This document shows positions 1,540 through 24,236 of a stretch of DNA of 25,018 nt, in pieces. Numbering within the stretch: position 1 is the stretch's first letter; the number at the start of each line of letters is the position of its first letter. Source of the stretch: Candidatus Blackallbacteria bacterium (lineage in GTDB: Bacteria; Cyanobacteriota; Sericytochromatia; UBA7694); assembly GCA_051715345.1 (NCBI GenBank), contig JBPXJQ010000004.1, forward strand, positions 1-25,018. Direction: 5' to 3'. The notes under the pieces are model-generated. The model made no database searches and was not told the origin of the DNA. It saw only the letters and a list, made by a program, of their open reading frames with translations. The position numbers and the translations under genes are program-made.

Positions 1540-3093
1540 TCAAAGCGCATCCACCAGCACATCAAAACCAACAATATTACGGCTCTCCCGGCTAAATTCG
1601 ATCCCAATCAGGGTGATTTCAATTCCTGGCGCTCTGTATTTTTCGGCGTAGCCTTTGTCAATTAACTGTTGCAACGCTTGGCCCGTGGAACTGCCTTCTA
1701 TGACTTTGAATTCAAACAGGTAAACACGGTTGTCCAATTTGAGGCTGAGGTCAATCCGACCATGGTTCGTGATGTCCTCTGGCTGTGCATCGAGCCCCAG
1801 AGCGGCCAATTGACTATAAAACACGCTGGCATAATGCCCTTCAAATTCCGCTATGGGATTTCGCCGATACCATTCATAGGGAATACTGGCAAACAAAGCA
1901 AAAACGCTCTGTTGTAGGGCCTCCAGATCGTGTGCTTCTAGCGCTGCTTCTAAACGGTTTCGAGCAACAAAAGCAGGTTGGGCTTCTGGCCCATACAAGG
2001 GTAGAATTGAGTCATTTAAAGCCATTTCCACTTCGCGATTGGGATAGCCCAAAATATATGTCCAGGTTCCTGAACGGGATTGTTTAACTTCGTGAAAAGT
2101 CAAATACCCAGCTTGCCACAACACAGCCTCTGGAGCCATATGCTCCACATCAAAACTCGACAGAATCGCTTCATTGGCTTCCCGGCGCATCAAATCTGGC
2201 GTAAACCAATTTTTTCGGGCCAATAACTCAATCAGAAATGTGGGGGAACCTGTTTCAAACCAATGTGATTTAAAGACGCGTTTTTGAAAGAGTAGCAAGA
2301 GATCATATGGGTTGTAGACCGCTTCGCCGGTCCAATTATAGCCATTGTACCAATGCCGAATTTTTTCGCGATTGAGGGCTTTTATTTCAGTTGCAAAGAT
2401 TGTATCTACATCTCTGTCTGTATAGCCACAAATAGCAGAGTATTCTGCATCTACAGTAATATCGTTGAGGTTATTCAGGCCTGAGAATAAACTGAGTTTG
2501 GAGAATTTACTCACGCCCGTGATAAACACAAACTTGATATGAGCATCACTGTCTTTGAGCACCGAATAAAAGCTGCGCAAGGCCTCACGCATCTCACGTG
2601 CAATCTCGGAATGGGTGATATTGTCCAGAATAGGCTTGTCGTATTCGTCAATCAGGACAACCACACGTTGTGCGCTTTGGTGATGAATGTTCTGGATGAG
2701 TCGTTTGAAACGACTGGGAATATCTGGCAAATGTTCGGTGATGTTCCAGGCCGTTTCATACCCCTCCAATTGTTCGTGGATAGCGGCTTCGAGGGCGGAT
2801 AAGTGTTTGTGCACACCGGCTCCAAAACTGAGTCGAATGACAGGGTACTTCACGGACCAGTCCCAGTGATTTTCGGCGTACAGTCCTGCAAACAGAGCAC
2901 GGTTGACCTCAAACAACTCTTTGAGCGTATCCAGAAACAAACTCTTGCCAAAGCGCCGGGGTCGCGACAGAAAATAATGGCTGCCCTCTGCGATTAATTG
3001 CAGGGCCAGTGGGGTTTTGTCTACATAATAACAATTCTCTTCACGCAGTTTGGCGAAGGTTTGAATGCCGATTGGCAATTTTTTGCGCGTCAT
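1540..3093 (-). CDS. AAA-ATPase-like domain protein with a C-terminal PD-(D/E)XK nuclease-fold domain (PF09820 + PF08011-type architecture)
   Basis: 517-aa ORF. The N-terminus IGIQTFAKLREENCYYVDKT is typical of the predicted AAA-ATPase family. A P-loop (RPRRFGKS) and a Walker B motif (VVVLIDEYD) are present. The C-terminus carries GRIDLSL...LFEFK, a D...ExK nuclease motif. The gene is visibly lower in GC (about 37-45 % in sampled 60-mers) than its flanks (about 60-67 %). Confidence 0.75.
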   Translation of the reverse strand: MTRKKLPIGIQTFAKLREENCYYVDKTPLALQLIAEGSHYFLSRPRRFGKSLFLDTLKELFEVNRALFAGLYAENHWDWSVKYPVIRLSFGAGVHKHLSALEAAIHEQLEGYETAWNITEHLPDIPSRFKRLIQNIHHQSAQRVVVLIDEYDKPILDNITHSEIAREMREALRSFYSVLKDSDAHIKFVFITGVSKFSKLSLFSGLNNLNDITVDAEYSAICGYTDRDVDTIFATEIKALNREKIRHWYNGYNWTGEAVYNPYDLLLLFQKRVFKSHWFETGSPTFLIELLARKNWFTPDLMRREANEAILSSFDVEHMAPEAVLWQAGYLTFHEVKQSRSGTWTYILGYPNREVEMALNDSILPLYGPEAQPAFVARNRLEAALEAHDLEALQQSVFALFASIPYEWYRRNPIAEFEGHYASVFYSQLAALGLDAQPEDITNHGRIDLSLKLDNRVYLFEFKVIEGSSTGQALQQLIDKGYAEKYRAPGIEITLIGIEFSRESRNIVGFDVLVDAL

Positions 3094-3188: not shown

Positions 3189-3408
3189 AGCCGAGGTCTT
3201 AGAAGCCTTGCTGGGATCTGGGCAATTTACAGACCAGACCCATGTCTTGCGCGGGCAAAAAGCGCGCAGCTTCGCCAGTTTTCGCGCAGCGGCTGACGAG
3301 GCGGGCATTTCACGCTTATATGGCGGCATTCATTACCGCGATGCCATCGATCAGGGCTTGGCACAGGAGCGCTGTGTGGGGCAGGCTGTGTTCAACCGCT
3401 TAAACTGA
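3189..3408 (+). pseudogene. Orphan 3' fragment of a PAP2 homologue (direct repeat copy B). It encodes the last 66 codons, including the SR-x5-H-x2-D catalytic motif and a stop codon
   Basis: ORF 3208..3408 translates to ...FTDQTHVLRGQKARSFASFRAAADEAGISRLYGGIHYRDAIDQGLAQERCVGQAVFNRLN, against ...QGRCVGQAVMNRLE at 1524. It has no 5' part, no ATG and no RBS. Confidence 0.75.
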
Positions 3409-3428: not shown

Positions 3429-3458
3429 TTTACAAGAAACCGGATTAAATGTTAAAAT
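3429..3458 (+). promoter_or_regulatory. Candidate sigma70-like promoter TTTACA-N18-TAAAAT for the rhodanese/P450 pair
   Basis: TTTACA at 3429-3434 and TAAAAT at 3453-3458, about 32 nt upstream of the ATG at 3490. The spacing is inferred by eye. Confidence 0.3.
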
Positions 3459-3466
3459 TATATTAA
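3452..3466 (+). promoter_or_regulatory. Shared 15-mer TTAAAATTATATTAA, copy 1, 23 nt upstream of the rhodanese lipoprotein start
   Basis: Exact 15/15 match to 12444..12458. Confidence 0.5.
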
Positions 3467-3489
3467 ATTCAAGTTAATCCGAGGTTCCC

Positions 3490-3960
3490 ATGTCCTTTTT
3501 AGCCAAAACCCTTTCTGCAGCATTGGCCACTCTGGCCCTGACGGCTTGTGCCTCTCAACCCATGCTGATGCCTTCAGCCAGCCGCATGCCTGCCGCCTTG
3601 CAGTCCATGCGTGCCCAAACCAATTTTAAGCCCCAGGCCGTGGTGACCATTTCTCCCCAAGAGGCCCATGATTGGGTCATGGATCCCCAATCCCAATGGC
3701 TGGTGCTGGATGTGCGTACCCCCGAAGAATTTGCCCAGGGTCGCCTCAAAAATGCCACCTTGATGAATTTTTATGATCCGGATTTTAAAACCAAACTCGA
3801 AGACATGAACCGCCACCAGCCCACGATTTTGTATTGTCGCAGTGGCAATCGCAGCGGCCAGGCCTTGGAAATCATGCGCGCACTGGGCTTTAAAAATGTC
3901 TACGAAGTGCGCGGCGGCATTCTCGCTTGGCAAGCCGCGGGCTTTCCCGTGGTTAAATAA
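3490..3960 (+). CDS. Single-domain rhodanese (sulfurtransferase) lipoprotein
   Basis: The signal and lipobox MSFLAKTLSAALATLALTAC are present. The rhodanese fold includes the active-site Cys loop CRSGNRS. An RBS GAGG lies upstream. Confidence 0.8.
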   Translation: MSFLAKTLSAALATLALTACASQPMLMPSASRMPAALQSMRAQTNFKPQAVVTISPQEAHDWVMDPQSQWLVLDVRTPEEFAQGRLKNATLMNFYDPDFKTKLEDMNRHQPTILYCRSGNRSGQALEIMRALGFKNVYEVRGGILAWQAAGFPVVK

Positions 3961-3983: not shown

Positions 3984-5327
3984 ATGAAAACCATGCGTCC
4001 CCCAGGGCCACCCGCTTGGGAATCGGCCCGGACGCTGCAGCGCTTTCGCAGGAACCGACTTGAATTGTTTTCCTCGTTGGCAGCGGAATACGGGGACCTT
4101 GTCTATTATTATATGGGCACACAGCCCATTTGCCTGGTGACAGACCCGGCCCTGATCAAACAGATTTTGACCGTGGATCACCGCCAATTTAAAAAAGGCC
4201 GCCTGCTGGAATTGGCCAAAGACATGTTGGGAGAGGGCCTGCTCACCAGCGAGGGCGAGTTTCATGCCCGCCAACGCCGGATTATTCAGCCCCTTTTTCA
4301 CCGCCAGATGATTCGGGCCTATGGCGAGACCATGGTCGAGCAGGGCAGCCGTCTGCGCGAGCGCCTGCAAGCGGGCCAGGTGCTGGACATGGCCCAGACC
4401 ATGATGCAATTGACCTTGGCGATTGTCGGCCAAACCCTTTTTGATGCCGATGTCGAAGGGGAGGCCACCGAAGTCGGGGCAGCGATGCACACCGTGCTCG
4501 ACATGATCAATCTGATGGGCAATCCTCTGGCCCTGTTGGCCCGCAAGTTCAATATTCCCAATCCCACCCGCCAGCGTTTTTTGGCCGCCAAAACCCTTTT
4601 GGACAGCACCATCGATGGCATCATTGCCGATCACCGCAGTGGCAAAAGCACCCGCCATGATCTGATCGGAACTTTGCTCACGGCCCGCGACACCGAAGGT
4701 GACGGCCAAGGCATGTCGGATTTGCAAATCCGACACGAAGCGCTCACGTTGTTTATGGCGGGGCATGAGACCACCGCCAATGCCCTGGTCTGGACCTGGT
4801 ACCTGCTCTCTGAGCATCCCAGGGTGGAGGCCCTTTTGCAGCGCGAACTCCAAGCTGTGTTGGGCGATCGCCCGCCCACGGTTGATGACCTGCCCCACTT
4901 GGTTTATACCCGCCAGATCATGACCGAGGCCATGCGTCTCTATCCCCCCGCTTGGATTCTCGGCCGCCGCGTCTTAAATGACTATGCCATCGGCACATAC
5001 ACCCTGCCTGCAAATTGTGTGGTGTTGATCAGTCAACAGATCGTCCACCGCAGCCCGCGTTGGTTTAGCGACCCAGAGCGTTTCTTACCCGAACGCTGGA
5101 ACGACGATCTGCGCCAGCAGATGCCCAAATTTGCCTATTTCCCTTTTGGAGGTGGGCCGCGCAATTGCATTGGCGAGGCCTTTGCCTGGATGGAAGGAAT
5201 GCTCTTGATTGCCACGTTGGCTCAGAAATGGCGCTTTCGGCTGGTGCCGGGCCATCCGGTCGAGCCAGAACCGCTGATCACCCTGCGGCCCAAGTTTGGC
5301 CTGCAGATGCGGATCGAAGCGAATTAG
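3984..5327 (+). CDS. Cytochrome P450 monooxygenase
   Basis: Heme-binding signature FPFGGGPRNCIG, I-helix AGHETT, and ExxR (EAMR). The gene lies 24 bp downstream of the rhodanese gene with no terminator between them. Confidence 0.9.
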   Translation: MKTMRPPGPPAWESARTLQRFRRNRLELFSSLAAEYGDLVYYYMGTQPICLVTDPALIKQILTVDHRQFKKGRLLELAKDMLGEGLLTSEGEFHARQRRIIQPLFHRQMIRAYGETMVEQGSRLRERLQAGQVLDMAQTMMQLTLAIVGQTLFDADVEGEATEVGAAMHTVLDMINLMGNPLALLARKFNIPNPTRQRFLAAKTLLDSTIDGIIADHRSGKSTRHDLIGTLLTARDTEGDGQGMSDLQIRHEALTLFMAGHETTANALVWTWYLLSEHPRVEALLQRELQAVLGDRPPTVDDLPHLVYTRQIMTEAMRLYPPAWILGRRVLNDYAIGTYTLPANCVVLISQQIVHRSPRWFSDPERFLPERWNDDLRQQMPKFAYFPFGGGPRNCIGEAFAWMEGMLLIATLAQKWRFRLVPGHPVEPEPLITLRPKFGLQMRIEAN

Positions 5328-5356
5328 TTAGCGTTTTAGTTAGCGCTTAGTTTAGG
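5325..5356. repeat. Tandem about 12-bp repeat (TAGTTAGCG[T/C]TT, two copies plus a partial one) in the convergent gap
   Basis: The sequence tagttagcgttt tagttagcgctt agtttagg contains stop codons in every frame. It sits between the P450 stop (5327) and the stop of the minus-strand gene (5347). Confidence 0.5.
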
Positions 5357-6258
5357 GGCGAAAGCACAACCATGCGGCGGTAAGTGGGGTCGCCCCCAGC
5401 GGGCAAGCGGGACTCCAGTACTTCGCGTTTGTACTGTTGCATTTGGCTTTGGGCTGTGGTGGTGACCGTTGTGCTCACGCCGTTGTACACCGCTTTCCAA
5501 TTGACATCCACACCCATTTTGCCAGCATCGGCCAAGGCGGCAACCACCACCGCTTGGGTGCCCAGACCGGGCACTTTGGCAGCCACAATCACGGAGGCAC
5601 TGGCAGCCACGAGTCCGAGCCCCATTTTGGTAAAGCTCTTTAAATTGGGGTCGACCCAGAAATTGTGAATGTCTTTTCCGGCAATGGCCACATCCATGGC
5701 GGCAACGCCGACATTTAAGACTGAACCCACACGGCCCAGGGCCTGACTGCCGCGGGTCAAGACAGACCCCGCTTGGCCCACATGTTCCGCCAACAATTTG
5801 CTCAAGGTGCCCACACTGGTGGTGGCACCCTTGGTGCTGTTGATCAGGCCTTTGAGGTTTTCGGGATTGGGATTTTCAAGACTTTTATCCAGGTTTGTGC
5901 CAAACGACTGCACCGAAGCCACAGCCCCCAAAGGGGCACTGACATTGCCCAAGACCTGTTGAACTTGGCCACGGGTCAATTGTTCGCCGAGATCTACAGC
6001 GGCTTTGAGATTGGCCGCATTGACATCCCCTTTGCTCAAGCGGCTGATCTGCTCAATTTTGGCCACGGTGCCCAGGGCTTCTTGGGCTTCAGTGCCTGCC
6101 ACGCCGGTTGACAGCACTTTTTGGGTGGCTGCTTTGGCCTCATTCAGGGCTTTGAGATTTTCTTCGGGCAAGGCCTGAAGATTTTTCACAGGCTGAAAGA
6201 GGGCTCCACTGCGGTGGAGTTGGGTCAGCTCGGAATAATTGTTTGTGATGTTTCCCAT
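5347..6258 (-). CDS. Hypothetical alpha-helical protein with a C-proximal hydrophobic helical hairpin
   Basis: 303 aa with no signal peptide. It has repeated G-x-V/L-G-rich amphipathic segments. Two hydrophobic helices of about 17 aa each, GLGLVAASASVIVAAKVPGLGTQAVVVAALADAG, are separated by a KVPGLG turn. Confidence 0.55.
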   Translation of the reverse strand: MGNITNNYSELTQLHRSGALFQPVKNLQALPEENLKALNEAKAATQKVLSTGVAGTEAQEALGTVAKIEQISRLSKGDVNAANLKAAVDLGEQLTRGQVQQVLGNVSAPLGAVASVQSFGTNLDKSLENPNPENLKGLINSTKGATTSVGTLSKLLAEHVGQAGSVLTRGSQALGRVGSVLNVGVAAMDVAIAGKDIHNFWVDPNLKSFTKMGLGLVAASASVIVAAKVPGLGTQAVVVAALADAGKMGVDVNWKAVYNGVSTTVTTTAQSQMQQYKREVLESRLPAGGDPTYRRMVVLSPLN

Positions 6259-6378
6259 GGTCTCTGTTTTTTGGTCAAATATTGATTGCAGTCTTAGTTT
6301 AAATATATGGCCTGGGTGCCCAAAGCTGACTTAAGAGGACGTTAAGAATGGATTATTTTTTGACAAAATTTAGTTTGG

Positions 6379-7066: not shown

Positions 7067-8095
7067 CTAGGCCAGTCCGCTTTGCTTGTATCGGCCCGAT
7101 TGGGCCACATAGTCAAAATTGGGCAACGTACTCGGCTCCCCAATCGCTTCACGCAAGAGTCCCAAGACCTGCCCTGAAAGCGGATTGGTTTTGCCCAGGG
7201 CGATGGGGATGTCTTCGCTGCCATAACCAGGCCCGACATTAAAACGGGTGATCAAAAATCCAGTGGCATCATGGCGCATGGCATGGCGCAGGCCAGAGTC
7301 AAAACGGCCCACCAGCGGCACTTCTTTGGCACCGGGGCCCGGAATGCCCCCGGTGGGATTCATGGCCATGGCCTCTTCGGCCGAGATCACCCCACCCGTC
7401 AGCGCTTCGACAATAGCCCCATATTGTTTGTGCTGGTTGCAGCCATAATAGCCCTTTTCAATGGCCAAGGGCAGATCGCGCACGGCCTCTGGGTGTTTAT
7501 ACGCGTTTTCTTTTAAAGTGTGGATTTCTTGGGGGGTCATTTTGGCAAAATCGCTCATCACCAAGACGGCGTCATCTGCCAGGCTGCGGTCAAATTCCGA
7601 TTCTGGCACGGCAATATTGCGTGCGGCCAAGGCTTTAAAATCCGTGAGAATTCCACTTTTTTCAATCGCTGAAGCATCGCGCAGAATGCTTGGGAAACGG
7701 CAGCCATGCACGTCTTCTGAGCGCATCAAAGTTTGAACCAGGGCCTGGTCACTTAAATGCGACAAAGACACACCGCCCGTGGGCCCTGTACCACTGATGA
7801 CTGCCAGAGCATGGGCCAAGCCTCTGGGAATGGGAATTGTTGAGGCGTTTTCAAGCATTTTTTCGGAAGAGGTATTTTCGATTTTGTGGTGAATTTCTGC
7901 ATTTGCAGGCAATGAGTCCTGTTCCGCAGCAGGCGTTGAAAAGGCCTTGGGATTCGCTTTTGCCACTGGGGTCTCACTGGCATGGGCCTGAGGGGCAGCG
8001 GTTTTTTCTGGGCCAGAAGGCGGTTTGATGGCAGGGGGAGCTGAGACGCTGAGGGCCTGAGGAACAGGAGAGGGGGTGCCAGAAACGAGACTCAT
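7067..8095 (-). CDS. Hypothetical protein with a Pro/Ala-rich N-terminal region (about 90 aa) and an unrecognised C-terminal domain
   Basis: 342-aa ORF with no signal peptide and no clear RBS. I recognise no conserved motifs. Confidence 0.55.
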   Translation of the reverse strand: MSLVSGTPSPVPQALSVSAPPAIKPPSGPEKTAAPQAHASETPVAKANPKAFSTPAAEQDSLPANAEIHHKIENTSSEKMLENASTIPIPRGLAHALAVISGTGPTGGVSLSHLSDQALVQTLMRSEDVHGCRFPSILRDASAIEKSGILTDFKALAARNIAVPESEFDRSLADDAVLVMSDFAKMTPQEIHTLKENAYKHPEAVRDLPLAIEKGYYGCNQHKQYGAIVEALTGGVISAEEAMAMNPTGGIPGPGAKEVPLVGRFDSGLRHAMRHDATGFLITRFNVGPGYGSEDIPIALGKTNPLSGQVLGLLREAIGEPSTLPNFDYVAQSGRYKQSGLA

Positions 8096-8163: not shown

Positions 8164-8195
8164 AAAATCTATGTTTAAAATCTATGTTTAAAAAA
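8164..8195. repeat. Tandem direct repeat AAAATCTATGTTT x2 between the terminator and the start of the 7067..8095 gene
   Basis: The sequence aaaatctatgttt aaaatctatgttt aaaaaa is a candidate promoter or operator repeat. Confidence 0.5.
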
Positions 8196-12297: not shown

Positions 12298-12443
12298 GGC
12301 TGTGACTCCTTAAGTGAATCTTGTTTGAATCAGATTGCAAATCAATACGCCAGTATACATTTTTGCCTGCCAGTTAAAAAGAGCCGTTGTGGGGATTAAA
12401 AAAAATTGTCTGAAAAGGCAAGTTTTCAAAAGTTAAGGATATA

Positions 12444-12458
12444 TTAAAATTATATTAA
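12444..12458 (+). promoter_or_regulatory. Shared 15-mer TTAAAATTATATTAA, copy 2, 29 nt upstream of the lipoprotein start at 12488
   Basis: Exact 15/15 match to 3452..3466. Confidence 0.5.
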
Positions 12459-12487
12459 TTTAAAATAATCCTCTGAGGTCATGTTCC

Positions 12488-13081
12488 ATGTTTCGCCGTC
12501 TTGCTCCCCTTTCATGTCTGCTCTTGACAGCCTGTGCCAGCCAATTGCCGCTGAATCTCGCTTCCCAGTCAAGTTTGCAGGCCCAATCTGCCGTTTCTGT
12601 GAAAAGTACGGCAGGCGCATTGGCTTTGATCGAAGAGATGGCTCATGCACAGCCCCCAGAATATGCGCGGATCGAAGCGGCCTTCCAAATTGAGATCAGC
12701 CGATCCACCCGTCCATCACTCAAAAAGATTTTGGCCCAAGCCGCAGAAAGCATGGTCCACCATCCAATTGCGGATCCCGATCCGCGCAAACATCCCGTCG
12801 CCAAATTGGTGCGTTTGGCATCCTGGCGCTACAATTGGCTGATGGGTGAAAACCTGATCTCGCGTGTATTTGAGCTTTTTGCCTTGGTCTATGCAACGCC
12901 AGAACAGCAGCCCGCTTTGACCCAGGCGTTTGAAATCCGGATTCGCAATACGCCCAAATTGGATGTCAATCTCTTGCTCACAGATTTTAAAGCAGGCTAT
13001 TACGACGATCTGCTGCCCGTCGGCAGTCCACTGCGGGTCAAACTCGAAACCCTCTTGAAAGACCGTTTGGCGGCCCGTTAA
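12488..13081 (+). CDS. Hypothetical lipoprotein
   Basis: MFRRLAPLSCLLLTACAS gives a signal with an LTAC lipobox. An RBS GAGG lies 9 nt upstream. An ATG at 12481 in another frame gives a short ORF with no signal and was not chosen. Confidence 0.65.
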   Translation: MFRRLAPLSCLLLTACASQLPLNLASQSSLQAQSAVSVKSTAGALALIEEMAHAQPPEYARIEAAFQIEISRSTRPSLKKILAQAAESMVHHPIADPDPRKHPVAKLVRLASWRYNWLMGENLISRVFELFALVYATPEQQPALTQAFEIRIRNTPKLDVNLLLTDFKAGYYDDLLPVGSPLRVKLETLLKDRLAAR

Positions 13082-18975: not shown

Positions 18976-20145
18976 TTCTTTGACCTTTTGCATAAAGGCT
19001 TCGATTGCAGGGTTGCGTGAAATTTTCCAGGCCAAATTGAGAAAATAGAGTGAATGATTGAGATCCCGCACCAAACTATAGAGGTAGCCCAGGCCAAAAT
19101 AGGCTTCGTGACGTTCTTTGTGAAGACTAACGGCCTCTAAAAAAACCTCAATCGCCTGCTGCAGAGGACTGGTATTGACAAAGCCCGAATCCACGACTTT
19201 ATCGATACAGGCAAAGCCCAAATCGAGGTATTCCTGATAGGACTTTTTCTCCTGGTTGAGTACAATGCCCATGCTGTTGCGAACCAGCGACTTGCCCGCG
19301 CCCATATCAAAGCGAACTTCCAGTTCTGCCCCAGATTTTTGGGCCGAACTGACCTGGTCAATCGGCTCTTCAATTGGCTCCTCTCTTGGGTCTTTGCGGC
19401 TGGGAGGGAGTTCAAAAGAAATGATCTGAAAACCTTCCTCGGCGGAAGGAGAAAGCGCTGCTTGGGGTTTGCTGGGATCAATCGTGGGCTCTGCAGCCAC
19501 CAGCGCTGGCAAAAAGGGCTGCAAGAGGCGAAGACTCTCTTGCCAGAAGCCTTGCTCTTGAGGCATGACCACGGGTGTGGCTTCTGTCAACTCTTCGGGC
19601 AGGGCCCAGTCGCTGGGAGCAGGAGCCAAGCCCTGTGCCAAACTGCGAAAAGCGTCATACAGAGGTTTTTGCCAACGGCCAAAGCGCTGATTGCGAGAGG
19701 ACTCAAGAAAAACCTGTAAATCTGGGGGATAGAGTCCATACCAGGCATCACTGACACTCTCCCAATTTTCAAGACTGTTGGGCGGGAGTTTAAACAAGCC
19801 GATTAAAGGCGGCCAATGGGGCAACCGCTCTTGGCTTTGGGCCTGTAAAAGAGATAGAGTGACTGTCTGAGCCTGTTTTTGCAGGGCCTTGATCTGATTC
19901 TCAATCCCCTGTCTAAAAACCGGAGAAAGGGTTTGCTGACGTCGGTTTTCGAGCCCCGTCACTTTGGCTTTGAGCTGCTCCAATTGCAGACGCAGGGGAC
20001 GGCTTTTGGAAACCTGAGCAACGGGTCTTTGTAAGGGACGAACAGCTGTGGTAGCGGGTGGTTTAGGCGCTGAGGGAGAGGAGCCGCTTGCAGACACAGG
20101 ACGGGCTGAGCGTATGCTCATCCTTTGCTGCATGGGTTGCTGCAT
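18958..20145 (-). CDS. Hypothetical protein with a low-complexity MQQPMQQ N-terminus, a coiled-coil region and a TPR-like C-terminus
   Basis: The ORF runs to 20232. I chose the start at 20145 (MQQPMQQRM) because AAGGAG lies 9 nt upstream. The 3' end overlaps the convergent RNB gene by 18 bp. Confidence 0.5.
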   Translation of the reverse strand: MQQPMQQRMSIRSARPVSASGSSPSAPKPPATTAVRPLQRPVAQVSKSRPLRLQLEQLKAKVTGLENRRQQTLSPVFRQGIENQIKALQKQAQTVTLSLLQAQSQERLPHWPPLIGLFKLPPNSLENWESVSDAWYGLYPPDLQVFLESSRNQRFGRWQKPLYDAFRSLAQGLAPAPSDWALPEELTEATPVVMPQEQGFWQESLRLLQPFLPALVAAEPTIDPSKPQAALSPSAEEGFQIISFELPPSRKDPREEPIEEPIDQVSSAQKSGAELEVRFDMGAGKSLVRNSMGIVLNQEKKSYQEYLDLGFACIDKVVDSGFVNTSPLQQAIEVFLEAVSLHKERHEAYFGLGYLYSLVRDLNHSLYFLNLAWKISRNPAIEAFMQKVKESYGLA

Positions 20146-20382
20146 GGGTTGATTCTCCTTGGAACTGCTGTCAGCGAAGTGGTGCTTGTTTTCAACAAAA
20201 ACGAGCCAAATACCGCTCATATTCTGCATCATTCTACCACAGATTCAATCTGGCCCTGGAAATTCAACTTTTTGATTAAAGTCACATTTTTACTGTGATA
20301 GGGTAGAGACATCGCGTCCGAAAAAAGATGTTAAAGTAATATTGTTAAGAAAAAAACATGTCAGATTGGCAAGGAGAAAGTT

Positions 20383-23564: not shown

Positions 23565-24236
23565 TTAACCAAACCAAGTGACAAATTCCTCCAGAGGCAA
23601 TCTCGGTGGCACATAGCTATTGACCAAAGCCTCTGGGTCGGGATAACCGACAGTCATCCCACTGACCAAAATTCGGCCCTGAAGACCCAAAAAAGCGCGA
23701 ATCGTTTGACTGTAACTGGTCACGCTGAATTGGGGGCAAGAGGCCAAACCACTGCCGACCAAACCCAGCATGAGATTTTGCATAAAAAAGCCCAAATCGA
23801 GAAAATTGCCGCGTTCAGCGTCACTGGGCAAATGAAAAAACAACGCAACTGGAGCGCCAAAGAAGGTGAAATTTTCGCGGTTGTGGGCCAAGCGCATGCG
23901 CCGGTCGTGGCGATCTATCCCTTTGAGCTCAAACAGGCCATAACCACACTCGCGGGCGCGTTGCATGAATGCTGCTGAGAGCGGTTCGTTGTGGTAAATA
24001 TAATCAGGCTCTTCACTTTCACCCAGGTCAAACTTGGCACAGATCAAATCTGACAATTGATGGCGAGCGTTTCCGCTGACCACCGCAACTCCCCAGGGTT
24101 GGGTGTTTTTGGAAGAGGGGGCCTCTCCCGCTGCCATCAAGATGTCTTCCAAGAGTTCTCGGGGAACGGGGGTGTCCAAGTAGGCCCGCTTGCAGTGACG
24201 GGCCCGAATGGTTTCTAAGATTGGATTGTTGGGCAT
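23565..24236 (-). CDS. Nitroreductase-family (NAD(P)H-flavin oxidoreductase-like) protein
   Basis: The N-terminus ILETIRARHCKRAYLDTPVPRELLEDIL is typical of the nitroreductase family. The 223-aa size fits. Confidence 0.75.
   Translation of the reverse strand: MPNNPILETIRARHCKRAYLDTPVPRELLEDILMAAGEAPSSKNTQPWGVAVVSGNARHQLSDLICAKFDLGESEEPDYIYHNEPLSAAFMQRARECGYGLFELKGIDRHDRRMRLAHNRENFTFFGAPVALFFHLPSDAERGNFLDLGFFMQNLMLGLVGSGLASCPQFSVTSYSQTIRAFLGLQGRILVSGMTVGYPDPEALVNSYVPPRLPLEEFVTWFG

Follow-up and report, generated by a model that had tools for sequence, protein, structure and literature searches.

The site bound by SphR/PhoB in Synechocystis sp. PCC 6803 consists of at least three tandem 8-bp repeats with the consensus CTTAACCT, separated by 3-bp linkers (PMC1906773). 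In PhoB/SphR sites the TTAA core is highly conserved, binding is weakened or lost when any one of the three TTAAs is mutated, and such sites have been predicted at 211 promoters (PMC11126600, 2024). In the Alphaproteobacteria, the CtrA box has the form TTAA-N7-TTAA(C), and CtrA, a member of the OmpR family, both activates (from a site at -35) and represses. The WalR/VicR box of the Firmicutes is built from the half-site TGTWAH, two copies of which are spaced by five nucleotides (TGTWAH-N5-TGTWAH). The Sericytochromatia are uncultured, non-photosynthetic relatives of the cyanobacteria known from metagenome-assembled genomes only, and nothing on their gene regulation was found in the literature searched.

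A stretch of 25,018 nucleotides from a Candidatus Blackallbacteria genome within the Sericytochromatia, hereafter the window, contains two perfect TTAA-N7-TTAA-N7-TTAA arrays (arrays A and B; Table 1). The TTAA cores of array A lie at 3452, 3463 and 3474 and the array ends 9 nt 5' of the ATG of a rhodanese-domain lipoprotein gene, while those of array B lie at 12433, 12444 and 12455 and the array ends 26 nt 5' of the start codon of a second lipoprotein gene, lipo2. These are the only perfect arrays in the window and they coincide with the two sites of an exact 15-mer, with the third core located downstream of it in the rhodanese promoter (3474) and upstream of it in the lipo2 promoter (12433). 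Allowing for up to two mismatches, seven array matches are present in the window, all of them intergenic, and the best after arrays A and B is array C, upstream of the gene hyp303. The two-box form TTAANNNNNNNTTAA (TTAA-N7-TTAA) occurs five times in the window, as compared to an expectation of 0.23.

Table 1 Positions of arrays, promoters and neighbouring genes in the window
Feature	Position	Strand	Remarks
Housekeeping promoter predicted for the rhodanese gene: -35 TTTACA, 18-nt spacer, TG-extended -10 TAAAAT	3429-3458	+	-10 overlaps box 1
Array A: GTTAAAAT tat ATTAAATT caa GTTAATCC	3451-3480	+	Three 8-bp boxes, 3-bp linkers; perfect triple
15-mer copy 1, TTAAAATTATATTAA	3452-3466	+	Boxes 1 and 2 of array A
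Rhodanese-domain lipoprotein gene	3490-3960	+	Domain from Pfam; lipobox LALTAC
Cytochrome P450 gene	3984-5327		Starts 23 nt after the rhodanese gene
hyp303, 303-aa gene	5347-6258	-	Array C upstream
Array C: CTTAACGT cct CTTAAGTC (gene strand), imperfect box before	6331-6356	-	Upstream of hyp303
Array B: GTTAAGGA tat ATTAAAAT tat ATTAATTT	12432-12461	+	Perfect triple
Three overlapping -10-like hexamers of lipo2: TATATT, TAAAAT, TATATT	12440-12445, 12445-12450, 12451-12456	+	Overlap with array B
15-mer copy 2, TTAAAATTATATTAA	12444-12458	+	Boxes 2 and 3 of array B
lipo2, 197-aa lipoprotein gene	12488-13081	+	All-alpha predicted fold

Arrays A and B share with the Pho box its three-box architecture of 8-bp repeats and 3-bp linkers, and do so within the same phylum, the Cyanobacteriota, with a TTAA core in every repeat. 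The letters around the core differ, however, with the boxes here following A/G-TTAA-(A/T/G) as opposed to the oxyphotobacterial CTTAACCT (PyTTAAPyPy(T/A)). In a set of 41 boxes, 32 begin with A or G and 40 have A, T or G as their sixth letter, and only a few fit the Pho consensus (e.g., CTTAACGT in array C, CTTAATTC in locus L088, and CTTAATTT in locus L089). The arrays at the two founding genes, rhodanese and lipo2, additionally overlap the predicted -10 and start site, whereas a Pho box takes the place of the -35, and a Pho-like position upstream of a predicted -10 is seen for array C and for the arrays of two genes at related loci, h604 (L088) and an M28 peptidase lipoprotein (L089). No classical phosphate gene (pst, pho or sphX) is present among the box-bearing genes seen, and the fetched loci hold no pstS, phoA or regulator gene. 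The bipartite TTAA-N7-TTAA core is also that of the CtrA box, with identical spacing, but the CtrA system is alphaproteobacterial and the host here belongs to the Sericytochromatia, the 3' C of TTAAC is absent, and there are often three boxes in place of two. As for the WalR/VicR box, the 11-bp period is the same, TGTTAA fits the half-site, many of the boxes here contain T(G/A)TTAA, and WalR governs cell-wall hydrolases and envelope proteins, with a CHAP-domain gene being among the box-bearing genes in the present collection; most of the boxes nonetheless read TATTAA, AGTTAA or CTTAA, without TGT, and WalRK is a system of the Firmicutes. By analogy with these systems, the arrays would work like a tandem site of the OmpR/PhoB family, which is not a claim that they are Pho boxes. 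Independent arrays (L089 19630, L090 10458, L171 7691, L006 2740, and L088 19930) repeatedly have TTAAGCT for their first box, which hints at a preferred, high-affinity box sequence.

The exact 15-mer TTAAAATTATATTAA had been noted in a preliminary description of the window as occurring on the coding strand of two lipoprotein genes, and its coordinates, its strand and the gaps between its 3' end and the ATG (23 nt to 3490 and 29 nt to 12488) were all reproduced, as was the lipoprotein nature of both genes, with lipoprotein signal peptides predicted for both ORFs 3' of the 15-mers. The same description assumed a GC content of 55-60%, which was measured at 52.4%, and considered a chance recurrence of an exact 15-mer very unlikely. 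For the 25 kb as a whole this does not hold, as at least one exact direct 15-mer repeat is present in 37% of dinucleotide-preserving shuffles of the window, and a second exact pair within the window (AAAGCCCAAATCGAG; 19213-19227 and 23787-23801), located in two unrelated coding regions, is a reminder that 15-mers recur by chance within 25 kb. Among promoters the expectation was sound: when 13 upstream regions of 100 nt were each shuffled separately, a shared exact match of at least 15 nt appeared in 0.34% of trials, such that the match exceeds chance once restricted to promoters. Further, matches to the 15-mer with up to three mismatches number five in the window as compared to 0.25 expected.

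Similarity around the two copies reaches 21 of 24 nt and then ends. That it extends beyond 15 nt, and that the rhodanese promoter adjoins a rearranged region (a 210-nt duplication around an inserted gene), could point to a recent duplication, a short gene conversion, a dispersed repeat or the end of a mobile element, none of them with a regulatory role. Such an origin is very improbable. There are two copies only, terminal inverted repeats are lacking, similarity does not continue past ~24 nt, and both sites are found at orthologous positions in distant lineages with differing spacers, so that they must be old and independent as opposed to recent copies. A dispersed repeat or IS end, the case that the preliminary description had set against its own interpretation, is contradicted by the same copy number, ends, flanks and orthologous positions, and so is a MITE.

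Homologues of both window proteins occur in Candidatus Sericytochromatia assemblies, from which all of the closest relatives derive, while exact-product look-ups for the two proteins found no record. Orthologous, syntenic loci at increasing evolutionary distance were reached through these homologues. For the rhodanese protein, amino acid identity to the window was 96% in L008, 92% in L002/L009, and from 70% down to 57% in L088, L089, L010, L090, and L171; for lipo2, it was 92% in L001, 83% in L002/L009, and from 82% down to 61% in L005, L004, L006, and L007. A scan of a genome collection with the rhodanese alignment returned three Sericytochromatia among 80 loci, the remainder of which served as an out-group control, and a metagenome scan returned one locus that was previously in the set.

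What is fixed in the orthologues is TTAA at positions 1-4 and 12-15 of the 15-mer and a third TTAA 11 nt on, while the spacers vary. At the rhodanese gene the TTAA cores are kept in seven lineages, down to 59% protein identity (the cores of boxes 1 and 2 in all seven and that of box 3 in five), with the spacers aattata, aatttta, aataata, aacttta, aatcagg, and aattaaa in six of the lineages. At lipo2 the cores are likewise kept in seven lineages with spacers that vary to much the same degree, and array B is a perfect triple also in L001, L002/L003, L004, L005, L006, and L008. The boxes of hyp303 are kept in four lineages, forming a perfect triple in L089, and those of the CHAP-domain gene are kept in L090 and L010, the products of which are 50% identical. 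In the closer lineages the entire 75 nt upstream of lipo2 are conserved and the boxes are not singled out, and because the founding arrays overlap -10-like hexamers, part of their conservation could be that of the promoter. The rhodanese leader of L089 (9880-10000) bears a complete TTTACA-18-TGcTAAAAT followed by a degenerate TGTTAAAAC with the TTAA cores of boxes 1 and 2; the presence of these boxes downstream of a separate promoter would make their conservation independent of the -10, which is suggestive only, since the leader there looks partly duplicated.

The 15-mer itself is far less constant than the cores. It is letter-identical to the window in the closest clade only (at both genes in L008 and at lipo2 in L001), and in L002/L009 the rhodanese copy has one change and the lipo2 copy three, so that four positions distinguish the two copies there; the 15-mer as such is therefore not under selection. 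Judged from these orthologues, in which the 7-nt spacer drifts, the 15-mer is not the functional unit, which would instead be the TTAA array. The idea in the preliminary description of a shared cis-regulatory element near the promoter is therefore retained, with the operator among its options fitting the conserved phased arrays best, and is given up as regards the 15-mer as the unit. Estimated from box composition and given a shared TTAA frame, the chance of an identical 7-nt spacer is ~7e-4 per site pair and ~3e-3 over the four possible pairings, and ~0.02-0.03 under the further requirement that TAAAAT be present as a -10 in both promoters. The spacer identity is not a separate signal and is best seen as secondary and clade-specific, two composite promoter-operator sequences having converged in one lineage with some luck, probably because both spacers also hold -10-like hexamers (TAAAAT, TATATT) in this lineage.

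Using 99 kb from seven Sericytochromatia sequences, including the window, it was possible to count TTAA start-to-start distances between 4 and 30 nt. Pairs at 11 nt numbered 19, all of them intergenic, as compared to a median of three over the range, and pairs at 22 nt numbered seven. Controlling for local composition by shuffling 60-nt blocks with dinucleotides preserved yielded ~2.5 pairs at 11 nt, and none of 400 shuffles reached 19. With the window left out, 12 pairs remained as compared to 1.8 in shuffles. As the Sericytochromatia DNA (~110 kb in total) had been fetched via the rhodanese and lipo2 genes, the founding promoters and orthologous duplicates were also removed, after which 11 nt was still the top distance, with seven pairs as compared to 2.24 (two of 300 shuffles reached seven). 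Given how the loci were fetched, the unbiased excess is moderate (7 vs 2.2), and chance should account for ~2-3 of the extra 11-nt sites; two of these additional pairs, located in transcribed spacers of an rRNA operon of L088, may be such cases. The phasing is restricted to TTAA and to this clade. None of the 15 other AT-only 4-mers peaks at a distance of 11, for which reason a general helical phasing of AT-rich DNA was rejected, and 1.28 Mb of by-catch loci from other phyla have no 11-nt TTAA peak (39 pairs against a background of ~50). Perfect triple arrays are present in 12 of the 171 fetched loci, and all 12 are from the Sericytochromatia. The three 11-nt pairs of L129, a metagenome contig of 37% GC, were judged to be chance in AT-rich DNA.

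The promoter predicted for the rhodanese gene has 10 of 12 consensus matches as compared to 0.1 expected, and its TTTAC(A/T) and TAAAAT persist in every lineage that has the boxes (L008, L009, L088, L089, L010, and L171). It thus has all the attributes of a sigma-70 extended -10 promoter (TGnTAnnnT, a -35-like hexamer 16-18 nt upstream, and conservation in orthologues), with TGtTAAAAT at 3450-3458 and TTTACA 18 nt upstream constituting a textbook example. The 15-mer starts 1 nt before the TAAAAT, and the extended -10 accounts for the first seven letters of this one copy only and not for the phased TTAA cores. The lipo2 promoter lacks the TG and has a weak -35, its best candidate (TTTTCA-16-TAAAAT, 9 of 12) is no better than in shuffles, and in orthologues both TATATT hexamers keep TAnnnT while TAAAAT is not conserved. 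TGn-extended -10 elements are also located before an AAA-ATPase gene (TGTTATAAT) and before hyp342 (TGCTAAGAT), a 342-aa gene at 7067-8095 on the minus strand. Between a terminator-like hairpin and the TGCTAAGAT element, positions 8164-8189 consist of an exact tandem repeat of 13 nt (AAAATCTATGTTT x2). The alternative sigma factor proposed in the preliminary description, taken here as ECF-type, was rejected: the sequences upstream of the two 15-mers share no -35 (TTTACA-18 vs TTTTCA-16 or none), the rhodanese promoter is of the housekeeping type, and TGn-extended -10 elements occur at genes that do not encode lipoproteins.

Several of these observations would suit a simpler account, rather unlikely on the whole, in which the genes have ordinary housekeeping promoters and AT-rich DNA around the -10 and the start became identical by chance, without a dedicated regulator. 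The rhodanese copy begins 1 nt before an extended -10 of the TG type that is paired with a good -35, the best lipo2 candidate has the same TAAAAT, extended -10 elements are present at the AAA-ATPase gene and hyp342, exact 15-mer repeats are frequent in shuffles of the window and one chance pair lies in its coding DNA, and chance would explain why the copies are exactly identical in the closest clade only. Left unexplained by this account are the recurrence of TTAA at 11 and 22 nt in this clade only and in intergenic DNA only, the conservation of boxes 2 and 3 downstream of the -10, and the arrays that precede -10 hexamers by 20-30 nt in the promoters of other genes. Additionally, lipo2 orthologues turn TAAAAT into TAAATA, which is not a -10, and keep the TTAA cores.

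The placement of the arrays relative to the predicted promoters falls into two patterns. At h398 (L171) the array overlaps the promoter in the same manner as at the founding genes, while the last perfect box precedes a -10-like hexamer by 20 nt at hyp303 (TATATT, downstream of array C in an activator-type geometry), 29 nt at h604, and 29 nt at the M28 peptidase gene, with the array upstream, over the -35 region. Overlap of the -10 as opposed to a place over the -35 region suggests two classes of sites, in a repressor-type and an activator-type position, for transcription starts that are themselves predictions.

Phased TTAA cores could in principle be read by more than one type of protein. TTAA is self-complementary, so that TTAA-N7-TTAA can be regarded as either an inverted or a direct repeat, and the 15-mer is self-complementary at 12 of its 15 positions. 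It also matches the PerR-type 7-1-7 consensus, TTATAATnATTATAA, at 11 of 14 positions. The binder might accordingly be a dimeric HTH or Fur-family repressor acting on the 7-1-7 near-palindrome TTAAAAT-T-ATATTAA, or else a nucleoid-associated protein with a preference for phased, flexible TTAA steps. This is unlikely, as the orthologues keep the TTAA cores only and lose the symmetry of the inner half-sites, many sites have GC-containing spacers (e.g., TTAAGAGGACGTTAA and TTAAGCTGTCTTTAA), and a register of 11 nt in which three and at times four boxes follow one another is typically produced by tandem binding of winged-helix proteins and not by a single dimer. A Fur/PerR box in the strict sense (inner AAT-n-ATT with dyad symmetry), considered on account of the 12 of 15 self-complementarity, was rejected in view of the free variation at the inner positions among orthologues and the GC-rich spacers at other sites.

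The arrays at both founding genes are probably transcribed in part, given how shortly before the start codons they end, and might instead serve in the mRNA leader as a structure or as a binding site for a small RNA or protein. This carries the lowest probability of the explanations considered: the window has no hit in Rfam, both leaders are predicted to fold no better than their shuffles (z ~ -0.5), and the arrays at other genes are upstream of the -10.

The explanation favoured here, with a confidence somewhat above even, is that a winged-helix response regulator from the OmpR/PhoB family would bind the arrays, which overlap the core promoters at the founding genes. The site would comprise three TTAA-centred 8-bp boxes with 3-bp linkers, two thirds of which are covered by each 15-mer, and the resulting 11-bp phase would place all boxes on one side of the helix, where a regulator of this type could bind as tandem protomers. 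The arrays, their conservation and their clade-specific excess are observed directly, and from the sequences we infer binding by a protein, along with its identity and the direction of regulation. The regulator would most likely be the Sericytochromatia counterpart of cyanobacterial SphR/PhoB, though a paralogue that recognises the same core is another possibility. At rhodanese and lipo2, the array would reach from the -10 region across the likely transcription start into the first part of the leader, with boxes 2 and 3 of array A probably covering the start site and leader, such that a bound regulator would compete with RNA polymerase and repress. At hyp303, h604, and the M28 peptidase gene, an array ~20-30 nt upstream of the -10 hexamer would have the position typical of activation.

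The shared 15-mer sites probably mark co-regulated genes. Downstream of array A, the cytochrome P450 gene is probably co-transcribed with the rhodanese gene; its coding region contains a perfect 22-nt palindrome, TGTCGGATTTGCAAATCCGACA, at 4714-4735. The structural model of lipo2 is confident and all-alpha over residues 40-197 (mean pLDDT, 79), but the protein belongs to no Pfam or NCBIfam family, the model has no significant match among solved structures, and the family has so far been seen in the Sericytochromatia only. Upstream of the rhodanese gene, a 210-nt direct repeat of 92% identity (1305-1514 and 3189-3398) corresponds to the 3' end of a PAP2 lipoprotein gene, the second copy being a non-coding remnant just 5' of the rhodanese promoter. 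The copies flank a gene of lower GC content (45-48%) at 1540-3093 that encodes an AAA-ATPase_like/PDDEXK_9 protein, and the arrangement looks like an insertion that duplicated its target. L008 and L009 have other neighbours upstream of the rhodanese gene.

Further box-bearing promoters belong to hyp303, the CHAP-domain gene (L090, L010), h604 (L088), the M28 peptidase lipoprotein (L089), and h398 (L171), a probable lipoprotein. Outside of the two founding families, lipoproteins account for two of the five box-bearing genes (M28 and h398) compared to ~3 of 80 other genes, tiny numbers from which a link between arrays and lipoproteins is suggestive. A restriction of the element to lipoprotein genes, as implied by the preliminary description, is likewise no more than suggestive: three box-bearing genes have no signal peptide, and a third lipoprotein gene, lipo3, has no array; for the PAP2 lipoprotein gene, the upstream region is cut off by the start of the window. 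Several box-bearing genes encode proteins without a signal peptide that start with MGN(I/L)(T/S/N), namely hyp303 (5347-6258, minus strand) and its orthologue (L089 11799-12710, minus strand) and two orthologous CHAP proteins (L090 10564-11658 and L010 2465-3592), and apart from this start the 303-aa protein and the CHAP proteins are unrelated.

A third site upstream of lipo3, TTAAAGTAATATT at 20331-20343, had been regarded as a relative of the 15-mer, and its match at 11 of 13 positions was confirmed. Its TTAA cores are 14 nt apart and not 11, however, and being out of phase it is not part of the motif. The lipo3 promoter (20329-20348) has TGTTAA twice, 14 nt apart and conserved in L001 and L002, and is thus box-like and out of the 11-nt phase. 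In the same divergent intergenic region between hyp424 and lipo3, an inverted repeat, TCACA-N7-TGTGA (20282-20298), also conserved in L001 and L002, may be the site of a dimeric regulator, with CRP-like half-sites in reversed order.

In place of a phosphate regulon, the arrays could serve as the operator for a global regulator of the OmpR family that occurs in the Sericytochromatia only. This regulator would have about a hundred or more sites per genome, and would repress one set of exported-lipoprotein genes from the -10 and start site and activate others from the -35 region. This alternative is possible, though on the doubtful side; if true, it would represent a cell-envelope regulon with CtrA- or WalR-like logic in a lineage without any described regulon. 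Under either reading, the path from the 15-mer to the arrays illustrates that the observation of an exact repeat can lead to a real motif whose functional unit differs from the repeat. A conserved operator that is specific to the clade and built like the cyanobacterial PhoB site would offer a motif that can be scanned across existing genomes to define the regulon, and a comparison with the PhoB regulon of the photosynthetic cyanobacteria would address whether the regulatory code is older than the divergence of the two classes.
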